Source: Promethearchaeota archaeon
GTDB lineage: Archaea; Asgardarchaeota; Heimdallarchaeia; Hodarchaeales; Hodarchaeaceae
Length of the DNA: 64,000 nt
NCBI GenBank assembly: GCA_048938105.1
Contig: JBHLMN010000003.1
Location: forward strand, 160,001-224,000
Reading direction: 5' to 3'
Below, in pieces: positions 7,016 through 10,943 of the stretch. The translations under genes were made by a program, and so were the position numbers. Each line of letters begins with the position of its first letter. Position 1 is the first letter of the stretch. The notes under the pieces are model-generated. The model saw only the letters and a list, made by a program, of their open reading frames with translations, was not told where the DNA came from and ran no database searches.

Positions 7016-7612
7016 TTGAAGTATATGAATTTACCCTTAAAATGGCAGTCTCGCTTTAGACGACGAATATGGTCAAAAACTCGACTCAATCACACAACAA
7101 ATTGGAAAAAACATTTAATTTCGCTTTATATAATCCGATCTGATGGTATTTGTTTGTTCTCCCACCATTTTCAAATAGGTCTAATATCTCAAATTGAAAC
7201 TCAATTAGTAGGAATGGGATTTACAGCTATCTCTCAAATGATGCAAGAAATTGTCGATTCATCATTAAGTTTGGAATTGATAGATCTTGGTCCGAAAAAG
7301 GTTTTAATTGAGGAATACGAGAATATTTTAGCCATTTTAATCGCTACAACAAACTCTGACTTCTTACGAGCTAAACTTAAAGAACTAGCGGATCATTTTG
7401 AAAAAATGTTTGAACTCCAGCAAAGAATAAGCGCCGAAACACGAGTGAGTTTGGAGGATTATGCGTTGACAGCAGAATTAGTTTCGATGGTTTTTCAAGA
7501 TCAACCCACGCGTGTCTTAGAGATAATTCCCGTGATTTTCAAGTCAATTAGAAAAAATAAAACCACTAAATCTGGGCAAAAAACTCTTTCTACCATTTTA
7601 CACAGTTACTAA
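7016..7612 (+). CDS. Longin-like domain protein (Asgard eukaryotic-signature type)
   Basis: LYIIRSDGICLFS...LVGMGFTAISQMMQEI...LKELADHFEKMF matches the longin beta-beta-alpha-beta3-alpha pattern. Confidence 0.65.
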   Translation: MKYMNLPLKWQSRFRRRIWSKTRLNHTTNWKKHLISLYIIRSDGICLFSHHFQIGLISQIETQLVGMGFTAISQMMQEIVDSSLSLELIDLGPKKVLIEEYENILAILIATTNSDFLRAKLKELADHFEKMFELQQRISAETRVSLEDYALTAELVSMVFQDQPTRVLEIIPVIFKSIRKNKTTKSGQKTLSTILHSY

Positions 7613-8747: not shown

Positions 8748-9539
8748 TCAGAGTTTTTGAATGAATCCTGGGGAAGGTTCGAAAAAGATTCCCTTCAACA
8801 ATCCCTGTTCTATCGCTTGTTTTACAGAGCTAAAAGGAACTCCTTTCTCGTTTGCTATCTTATTGAGTGTCTCAAGTTTAATAGGTTTATCAGTAATGAA
8901 CGACAAGACATCTGCCGCAGTTTCATTGGCCATTAAGAAATCTTTGAAATCCTGTTCCAAATTATCTGCATCTTCTTGGGAAATACTTTTCTTTTGCAAT
9001 GATGTCTGTAGTAAATCTTGAAATATGGTTTTTGCATCCGAGGCTGATTCAAGATAGCACCTGATATGATAGAATTTGTGAGAAAAAAACTTGCGACCAC
9101 CATCCAATTCAACTTGTGAGGGTTCAGCAACACGAAGAATTCCTTTTTCTATCTTTTTCTCACAGATTCTACAAGCTCCTCGCGAACTCTTCGAATACTC
9201 AAGAAAAGATTTACGTGTAGCAGCAGTTCTTTGAGGGCTATCAATAACCTCCTTTTTTCTTTTTTTCAGAGATTCGAAGATTTTCGCTTTATCCTCTGCA
9301 TCTATTGTGGAAGACGAGTCCAAGAATTCCATTATTATGTCTATTTTATCTTGAGGAACACAGGCTACATGATAGAAACCATGAGAGGTGATTGTTTCGC
9401 CGTCTGGTTTAGTAAAAAGATAAGGAATACCAATCCGAAACTCATTTTTAATGATTTTTTGACGACAAGTCCTACAAGATGCTCTACTTGTCTTTGCAGG
9501 CTCAATTTTTAGTTTAATTTTCCCAGACATCAAGCTCAC
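8748..9539 (-). CDS. Protein with two PARP-type zinc fingers and a probable C-terminal winged helix
   Basis: IEPAKTSRASCRTC-x31-HVAC and LEYSKSSRGACRIC-x31-HIRC. Confidence 0.85.
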   Translation of the reverse strand: MSLMSGKIKLKIEPAKTSRASCRTCRQKIIKNEFRIGIPYLFTKPDGETITSHGFYHVACVPQDKIDIIMEFLDSSSTIDAEDKAKIFESLKKRKKEVIDSPQRTAATRKSFLEYSKSSRGACRICEKKIEKGILRVAEPSQVELDGGRKFFSHKFYHIRCYLESASDAKTIFQDLLQTSLQKKSISQEDADNLEQDFKDFLMANETAADVLSFITDKPIKLETLNKIANEKGVPFSSVKQAIEQGLLKGIFFEPSPGFIQKL

Positions 9540-9610
9540 TTCTGGGTAGAATTAGTAATTCAACTAAAAGACCTCTCCTCTATCTTTCTTTTAAAACTTC
9601 CTTTTATTTC

Positions 9611-9913
9611 TTCTATTAACGGAAAAACCTACCTTATTTCTTAGAGGATATCGTGCCGAGAAGGTGCGAACCTTTCGCAAGGAAGGTTTATAAGGGTTAG
9701 TGTGTTAGGGTTTGGTAGGATCAAACTGAAAGATGTAGTTCCTACGGTGGCGCGTTGGGTAAAGATGTGTGTTCTGGAGATGCACCAGAATCGTTATACC
9801 TACTACATCCTAAGTAATCCTATCGGGCTCTTTAATCAAGGGAAGGCGAGTTGAACCTTCGGTTCACTCTTACCTTGCATAAATAGGATTACAGTAGGTG
9901 AGAGTTAATAGAA
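9611..9913 (+). ncRNA. Putative ~300-nt structured non-coding RNA, family unknown
   Basis: No long ORF; GC-richer than its flanks; nested helices 9611-9620/9904-9913, 9627-9632/9894-9899, 9732-9739/9802-9809, 9814-9823/9883-9892; GCAA-capped and UUCG-containing hairpins; G-U pairs favour the + strand. Confidence 0.65.
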
Positions 9914-9980
9914 TCGAGTATTACAAATAAAATCGCATTAATCAGTGGTAATAACAAGGGACTCCAAAATTTTGTGGAAT

Positions 9981-10943
9981 TCATGAAAGAAAAATAAATC
10001 TAGTGCTCTTAATGCCTTCGCTTGACTTTTGTGAAAATGAAGAATGAGTTTCTGAGGCTGCAATAAATTCCTCTAAATTATTTGCAATGAAAGTTATCAT
10101 TTCTTCCTTTAGGATGTCAAATTTTCCGTAAATCTCTGGAATAACATATGTAAAGAAGACAAAAATCTTGTCATAGCATTTAAAATGCCAGATGACCGAA
10201 TCACGAAGTCGCTTGGCTCCTATTAAAGACATATTATCTCTGTATTTGCTTAATAGATACTCTTGTTTAATATAATTGGAAATAGAGGCTAATAAAGGAT
10301 CTGAAATGTCTTCGTGAGTTTGACTTTTTGCAGTTGAGAATAAATAATTCCCATTTTCATCGTAAACGAGAATGAATGAGACAAATTCTTCTAGATCAGT
10401 TTTAATTTTACTTAAAATTTTCCAATATATTGAAGCATCTTCCCCCAATGGTCCCTCGATGGCTTTTTCGAAATTCTCTTCCAAACCTACATATTCAGGG
10501 TTTTCTAGGTTTGCTTGCATTGGAGAATAATGACTAAGTAAATTTGTTGGTAATTGTTGAAATTCAGGAGAAGTAGATATTGATACTAGCGATATCCCGT
10601 TTGGAGCCTTCGCATAATCGACATATAGTGGTTTATTTTCTTTTTTGGATATGTCTAAGAGAGTAGGTCTAACAATATCTTTCAATTGTATTATAGCTTC
10701 CAATAGGCCTGACATTAGAAGTATTCTCTCATTTTTTGGACTTACTTCTTGACTTTGACGAGTGTGTATTTCTCCTGATTTATTTATATGAATAGATCGA
10801 GTATAGACGGGGAGGCCACCCTCATCAGCAAGAATCACCATTAAATTACTTCCCCTTAAGGAGGATTGACAAACGAGAGGCTGATTCTCATTGGCTAGCT
10901 GGTCAAATGACAATCTTTTAGAATTTTCATTGGACAAATTCAA
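9981..10943 (-). CDS. Hypothetical protein, possibly tandem longin/roadblock-like domains
   Basis: VILADEGGLPVYTR...LLMSGLLEAI and FILVYDENGNYLFS...DPLLASI. Confidence 0.45.
   Translation of the reverse strand: MNLSNENSKRLSFDQLANENQPLVCQSSLRGSNLMVILADEGGLPVYTRSIHINKSGEIHTRQSQEVSPKNERILLMSGLLEAIIQLKDIVRPTLLDISKKENKPLYVDYAKAPNGISLVSISTSPEFQQLPTNLLSHYSPMQANLENPEYVGLEENFEKAIEGPLGEDASIYWKILSKIKTDLEEFVSFILVYDENGNYLFSTAKSQTHEDISDPLLASISNYIKQEYLLSKYRDNMSLIGAKRLRDSVIWHFKCYDKIFVFFTYVIPEIYGKFDILKEEMITFIANNLEEFIAASETHSSFSQKSSEGIKSTRFIFLS

Follow-up and report, generated by a model that had tools for sequence, protein, structure and literature searches.

What is the folded stretch of about 300 nucleotides at positions 9611-9913 of the 64,000-nt piece of Promethearchaeota archaeon DNA analysed here (hereafter the window)? 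It lies in an intergenic region, and the original prediction took it for a novel or highly diverged large RNA of archaea. The stretch matches no catalogued family. On the comparisons described below, it is best read as a mini-element of intron origin that is rare and was inserted recently, and not as a new core RNA. With moderate confidence, we read it as a solitary non-autonomous derivative of a Hodarchaeales-like Asgard group II intron lineage, probably an inert relic. The inserted part, with its relatives, is called the S element, and its parts and surroundings are listed in Table 1.

Table 1 Positions of the S element, its parts and its neighbours in the window
Feature	Positions	Strand	Remarks
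zf-PARP protein, 263 aa	8748-9539	-	two stretches match Pfam zf-PARP, E 3e-24
Intergenic region	9540-9980		flanked by two minus-strand ORFs
Palindromic TATA-like box	9590-9597	unassigned	also in G003 and G008 intergenic regions without the element
Outer closing helix, left arm	9611-9620	+	flank DNA; identical in the G003 empty site
S element, ~247 nt	9631-9877	+	absent from the G003 orthologous intergenic region
Leader, 22 nt	9631-9652	+	only in the window copy; unalignable to G003 or metagenome S copies
Conserved 77-nt core, three hairpins	9652-9727	+	covariance model R1, 86-109 bits in 9 loci
Core hairpin H1	9652-9657/9663-9668	+	5-nt loop
Core hairpin H2	9669-9676/9681-9688	+	GNRA loop
Core hairpin H3	9709-9714/9722-9727	+	
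'Domain B', 91 nt	9728-9818	+	unique to the window copy; sits exactly at the 3' edge of the core
Linker	9819-9842	+	conserved among S copies (alignment)
Domain VI-like 3' hairpin	9843-9878	+	basal 4 bp 9843-9846/9873-9876, bulged A 9872, upper stem
Flank segment	9883-9892	+	perfect 10-bp pairing with 9814-9823 inside the insertion
Outer closing helix, right arm	9904-9913	+	flank DNA; fits the left arm 10/10, in G003 8/10
p320, 320-aa protein	9981-10943	-	no Pfam match
Predicted helix pairs (examples)	9611-9620/9904-9913; 9627-9632/9894-9899; 9651-9657/9663-9669; 9670-9676/9681-9687; 9732-9739/9802-9809; 9814-9823/9883-9892		

The predicted helices are present in the letters: all 13 named helix pairs occur once each, at the positions given for them, and consist of Watson-Crick or G-U pairs. 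The plus strand of 9611-9913 folds at -98.2 kcal/mol (z -4.13), a value that none of 100 shuffled controls equals; the minus strand reaches -75.1 kcal/mol (z -3.82). The G-U pairs of the conserved hairpins are compatible with the plus strand only, and on this strand G exceeds C, in a folded stretch with a G+C fraction of 0.43-0.44 against about 0.33 in the surroundings. Two inherited modules account for the excess stability, the core (z -3.1) and the 3' hairpin (locally -14 to -15 kcal/mol, z -2.7), whereas the central segment proposed as 'domain B' is on its own no better than its shuffles (z -1.2). Two parts of the proposed fold lie outside the inserted element, in flanking DNA, namely both arms of the outer closing helix and the right arm of the domain C helix. 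Of the proposed arrangement in three closed domains, then, every helix stands, but the closed architecture is peculiar to the window copy.

No Rfam family matches, either for the window at the gathering threshold or for 9450-10050 at E<=10, apart from a noise match to sroH. It is also correct that the stretch is neither SRP nor RNase P RNA: the region matches neither family, and the host carries the genes for both on another contig, with RNase P RNA (RF00373) at C52:489555-489917 (137 bits) and SRP RNA (RF01857) at G000:C52:297893-298199 (L001). The SRP RNA is of a diverged Asgard type: it aligns with the archaeal model from end to end but scores 70 bits, where the gathering score is 96.5.

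The S element is rare. The covariance model R1, built from the 5' 83 nt and run on all 82 genomes of the class, finds it in two of them, the host and the same-genus sister species G003. BLAST returns only these two from 60 relatives and 2 of the 399 genomes of the phylum, and 19 of the 21 genus members are without it. Weaker covariance-model matches in G010, G001 and others (16-21 bits) contain many non-standard pairs and were rejected as noise, and a pattern scan of viral contigs gave no match to the element. Within the 5.85-Mb host genome it is single copy, for which reason a multi-copy repeat or MITE was rejected.

Both flanks of the window copy align locally to the empty site of G003 (L049), and this maps the insertion to 9631-9877, with a 4-nt microhomology at the left junction and a 1-nt ambiguity at the right. 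The G003 copy is a clean 136-nt insertion at another locus, without target duplication when compared with the empty orthologous site of the host (contig C4). Since each genome is empty at the insertion site of the other, the two sister genomes hold independent insertions, and by these alignments the window copy is shown to have been inserted after the split from G003. A conserved large archaeal RNA gene finds no support in these results, with two genomes of the class, different loci, an insertion relative to the sister species and, as described below, modules shared with the ends of group II introns. In place of the candidate 'new large archaeal RNA', the results point to a small family that lacks domain V and is built from the end modules of a group II intron lineage in Hodarchaeales-like Asgard archaea.

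The genes on either side have a history of their own. The p320/zf-PARP gene pair is syntenic across the genus with the S element missing there, and the zf-PARP protein, which has no catalytic domain, is conserved and syntenic throughout. In most genus members the spacer between the two genes is about 90-250 nt long, AT-rich and unstructured. In G009 (L055) and G014 (L056) it contains instead about 1.2 kb of unrelated inserted DNA, whose long open frame runs on the other strand, so this spacer has taken insertions more than once. The TATA-like box had been noted in the original prediction, and the same box is found in the sister species and in G008, both element-free there. The box, like the left arm of the outer helix, predates the insertion, and its purine-rich side is turned toward the minus-strand zf-PARP gene, whose promoter it most likely is, to judge from its position and conservation. 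Being kept in the element-free spacers of G003 and G008 and facing zf-PARP, it is not countable as a promoter of an S RNA. Functional coupling of the element with the zf-PARP gene is unsupported, as element-free members of the genus conserve both the gene pair and the promoter. At 7101-7543 on the minus strand, some 2 kb away from the window S element, lies a 70%-identical DNA paralogue of the gene that adjoins the S element of G003 (L020 1596-2165), which may be coincidence.

The empty sites also bear on the idea that the stretch is a chance palindrome or the miniature of a DNA transposon, either a MITE or an IS200/IS605-type element. Such an origin would supply the 10-bp terminal inverted repeat and, as in IS200/IS605, the lack of target duplications. 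The empty site, however, has this inverted repeat too, as part of the flank DNA; the host has one copy of the element; and no matching inverted repeat accompanies its relative in the intron-bearing contig L149 (described below), where a search for an insertion sequence with inverted ends matching the S end found none. The domain VI homology and the strand-specific G-U pairs would remain unaccounted for. Compared with a MITE or IS-derived element, the S element thus has no terminal inverted repeats of its own, no target duplication and no multiple copies, and we regard this origin as hardly credible.

Homology among the window, G003 and metagenome copies is limited to three parts, namely the core, the 3' hairpin and the short linker between 9819 and 9842; for the leader and domain B no similarity was found in any related locus. 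In the core, all 100 pair cells are standard across five distinct sequences. Two pairs of H2 are altered on both sides, and all five substitutions in this hairpin keep the pairing. Group II introns are recognized by domain V, a 34-nt catalytic hairpin, by a bulged A in domain VI at 7-8 nt from the 3' end, and by a 5' GUGYG together with a domain I that carries exon-binding sites. A near-consensus GUGYG-type pentamer stands at 9653, at the start of the core, but its second base differs in G003, and only about 75 nt would be available for a possible domain I (DI). In the 3' hairpin, the bulged A lies 6 nt before the boundary and is followed by the basal helix and then by 2 nt to the 3' end of the element.

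Metagenome contigs link these modules to group II introns. A pattern scan of such contigs gave five true matches, one identical to the G003 locus and four from a single sediment assembly. Five contigs, which come from related Asgard archaea and at least three samples, carry the S modules immediately downstream of domain V in group II introns encoding a reverse transcriptase (RT)/maturase. Rfam RF00029 (domains V-VI) matches immediately 5' of the core in L086 and L094, with 44 and 56 bits, and a GIIM maturase ORF lies further upstream in L094. Full-length RVT_1 plus GIIM homologues led to contigs L149, L150 and L151, from other samples, which have domain V, about 60 nt, the core, the linker and the 3' strand in this same order; in L149 and L150 the RT ORF comes first and domain V follows 160 nt on. 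The intron copies pair a strand that begins 2-3 nt past domain V with the S 3' strand over 16 bp. This domain VI duplex has -19 kcal/mol in three copies, versus -5 to -9 for the local hairpin, and its bulged A is 7 nt from the boundary. The 3' boundary is the point at which homology between copies ends, and it coincides with a break in an independent assembly. Both strands of the window's 3' hairpin align with the intron domain VI strands of L149, L086 and L094, and 19 nt of its 3' strand are 100% identical to L086. Domain VI is of the usual compact kind in L152, a distant relative (52% RT identity), and its basal motif is the same; in the main lineage domain VI is unusual in being split by a structured insertion of about 175 nt.

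The core is found at the other end of these elements as well. Homology between L087 and L108 starts exactly at the core and extends for at least 1 kb, with unrelated housekeeping genes as the upstream flanks, and the core also stands at the 5' boundary of several RT-bearing elements. L108 (left, with the core at the boundary) and L094 (right) are the two ends of one insertion, because yegS and enolase are adjacent in the host. L151 begins and finishes inside the core, joining both halves, and on the 5' side of L152 nothing separates an S-like domain VI end from a degenerate core. Taken together, the alignments assign both modules of the window copy to the ends of an Asgard group II intron lineage.

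Extra ORFs, inversions and head-to-tail junctions are further traits of this lineage. In L087, L108 and L151, which have a 5' core, the presumed DI-DIII segment is inverted between 25-nt inverted repeats and the RT is N-terminally shorter. In L149 the segment, assigned as DI-DIII from its position and two short motifs only, is in the normal orientation, the 5' core is missing and the presumed 5' end is of different sequence. The segment is about 870 nt long (L108 4268-5139; L151 77-1010; L149 5398-6103), and the repeats that bound it are 88% complementary, with one arm duplicating the start of the RT gene; the inversion may reflect a rearrangement or act as a switch. Between the presumed DI-DIII of L149 and the canonical Asgard intron G240 there is no sequence similarity, and the Rfam DI-DIV models have no match in the 1 kb after the 5' core in L108. 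A candidate compensatory change in EBS1/IBS1 between L087 and L108 was dropped because it falls in the segment whose orientation is opposite to that in L149. The RT/maturase gene is separated from domain V by a block of about 1.3-1.5 kb with four small ORFs on the same strand (about 65-150 aa, no Pfam match), at L094 11640-13150 (minus strand), L151 2697-4000 and L153 2639-4188; it is absent from L149.

The core is not a general 5' motif of group II introns, as the canonical intron G240 does not have it. It may be the 5' terminus proper of the intron, a mini-copy in nested or tandem position, or a target element taken up by the intron. The S element might even be an independent small element or RNA gene, parasitized by group II introns that adopted its 3' hairpin as their domain VI. 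By eye, the final 7 nt of the window leader, directly before the core, are the same 7 nt that precede the presumed 5' end of the intron in L149, as an intron-less target allele predicts, and the sequence preceding the second core resembles a degenerate domain VI 3' strand. Four copies, moreover, have exactly the same 77-nt core (100% identity), with about 10% difference between their flanks. But the strand after domain V has no good partner except the S 3' strand, the distant L152 shares the basal motif within a compact, ordinary domain VI, and nearly all related genomes are without S; we consider this order of events distinctly unlikely.

Derivation of the S element from the intron lineage, which we prefer, leaves the window copy an orphan. 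The host genome, which is 99% complete, has no match to RF00029, GIIM or RVT_1, the window has none to intron families at the gathering threshold or at E<=10, and the G003 genome has no domain V. Without domain V the element is by definition not an intron, and in a host without domain V, RT or maturase the window copy is unable to splice or move by itself. Its arrival could be explained by an RT inserting an RNA that was anchored at its intron-type 3' end, given the fixed 3' end, the variation at the 5' end (which lies 2 nt or 22 nt ahead of the core), the lack of a target-site duplication, the 5' microhomology and the RT-encoding source lineage. The strong fold would then be a legacy of the intron modules, to which helices with the neighbouring inverted repeats add further strength. 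The window copy is most likely a dead relic.

Such remains are common: the majority of group II intron copies in bacteria are either inactive or truncated, and this is the commonest state of these introns in prokaryotes (PMC4424553). Truncated prokaryotic group II introns (PMC4424553) resemble the S element in being intergenic orphans with an intron-type 3' end, a domain VI-like hairpin with a bulged A and an RT/maturase-encoding source. They differ from it in three respects: the S element lacks domain V although the intron copies carry it just about 60 nt upstream of the core, its architecture is the same in independent insertions, and its 77-nt module also marks the 5' boundary of its relatives.

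The S element could instead be a living non-autonomous retroelement, either a group III-like mini-intron without domain V or a SINE-like passenger whose intron-type 3' end lets an intron RT copy it in trans; the window copy would then be recent and still competent. There are two independent clean insertions in sister genomes, all S copies have the identical internal junction of core, linker and domain VI, S always accompanies RT-bearing elements, and head-to-tail junctions, with a domain VI end against a core, recur. Euglena group III introns offer a precedent, since they keep only DI and domain VI (DVI) motifs and are thought to be trans-dependent (PMC4424553). On the other side, the host contains no RT, maturase or domain V and G003 no domain V, each genome has one copy, and G003 has a different second base in what would be the 5' splice motif. 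As the S element is intergenic, there are also no exons to splice. We therefore think a living element unlikely, if worth keeping in mind.

Group III introns are about 90-120 nt long, contain DI and DVI motifs only, interrupt a gene and are spliced out. The consensus S element, represented by the 136-nt copy of G003, fits this size and motif make-up, and the window copy is enlarged to 247 nt. The group III introns of Euglena plastids (PMC4424553), at about 100-140 nt, share with it DI-like hairpins, a DVI-like hairpin and the lack of domain V, and they too are nested with, or adjoin, full group II introns. In contrast to the S element, which is intergenic, single copy and housed in a genome without group II machinery, they interrupt genes and are spliced. 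Of the forms described with DI and DVI motifs alone, they appear by analogy to come closest. Among archaea, ORF-less and nested group II introns are described from Methanosarcina in work cited in PMC4424553 (Dai and Zimmerly 2003; Simon et al. 2008), and group II maturases occur in Heimdallarchaeia (bioRxiv 10.1101/2024.12.10.627823). Archaeal group II introns are like the S lineage in having an archaeal host, in lying beside other mobile DNA and in being arranged head-to-tail or nested; the ORF-less ones, as far as that account of them goes, retain the full ribozyme including domain V, which S does not. The main interest of the element lies in what it reveals of a peculiar group II intron lineage in the closest archaeal relatives of eukaryotes. 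Because Asgard group II introns bear on ideas about the origin of spliceosomal introns, degenerate and possibly trans-dependent derivatives are worth recording.

Could an inert copy have been put to new use? Several features of its letters hint that selection may act on the window copy as an RNA. The closed fold draws on flank DNA in three of its helices, two of which are perfect over 10 bp; the right arm of the outer helix differs from that of G003, and apparently of G008 too, at exactly the two positions that make the 10-bp match perfect. The solo copies also have a stronger local 3' hairpin than the intron-resident copies, and the five pair-preserving substitutions in H2 are a further such sign.

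One candidate use is that of a trans-acting RNA, for instance through U3-like pairing with the 5' end of 16S rRNA. The segment 9708-9725 forms a predicted duplex of -22.5 kcal/mol with the first 40 nt of the host 16S, the best duplex of the RNA, where random 18-mers average -8.8 (sd 3.5), and in several genus members the 16S 5' end would pair over 11 contiguous bp with the H3 region. The raised G+C and the perfect flank helices would fit such a role. In the 16S of the host itself and of its closest relatives, however, a C interrupts the duplex with an A-C mismatch, and the segment is sequestered in H3. Its conservation is best seen as inherited, since it is identical in the intron-resident copies and locked in H3. 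The duplex of the whole RNA with the pre-16S 5' region is no better than that of shuffles (28/100), most genus members have the same 16S end but no element, no C/D or other guide boxes are conserved among the copies by eye, and there is no Rfam snoRNA match. Recruitment as a trans-acting RNA is thus very unlikely.

U3 snoRNA itself is comparable in its short complementarity to the extreme 5' end of the small-subunit rRNA. The S element, in contrast, has no C/D boxes, its pairing is broken in its own host's 16S, its motif is inherited from an intron-associated module and it is absent from most of the genus; a U3-like role is unlikely. A broader proposal, a long shot in our view, is that S elements are pieces of group II introns without domain V that persist and act alone, as mini-introns, as SINE-like retroelements serviced in trans or as free RNAs. 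In the last form, S would present a branch-site helix together with an anti-16S loop. If true, it would be a living example of a group II intron splitting into separately encoded RNA parts.

The host 16S gene (G000:C9:1695-3919, L134) is itself unusual. Its 5' end departs from the usual archaeal sequence at three positions, and the match spans 2225 nt against the 1478 positions of the model, so the gene appears to contain about 750 nt of insertions, perhaps introns.
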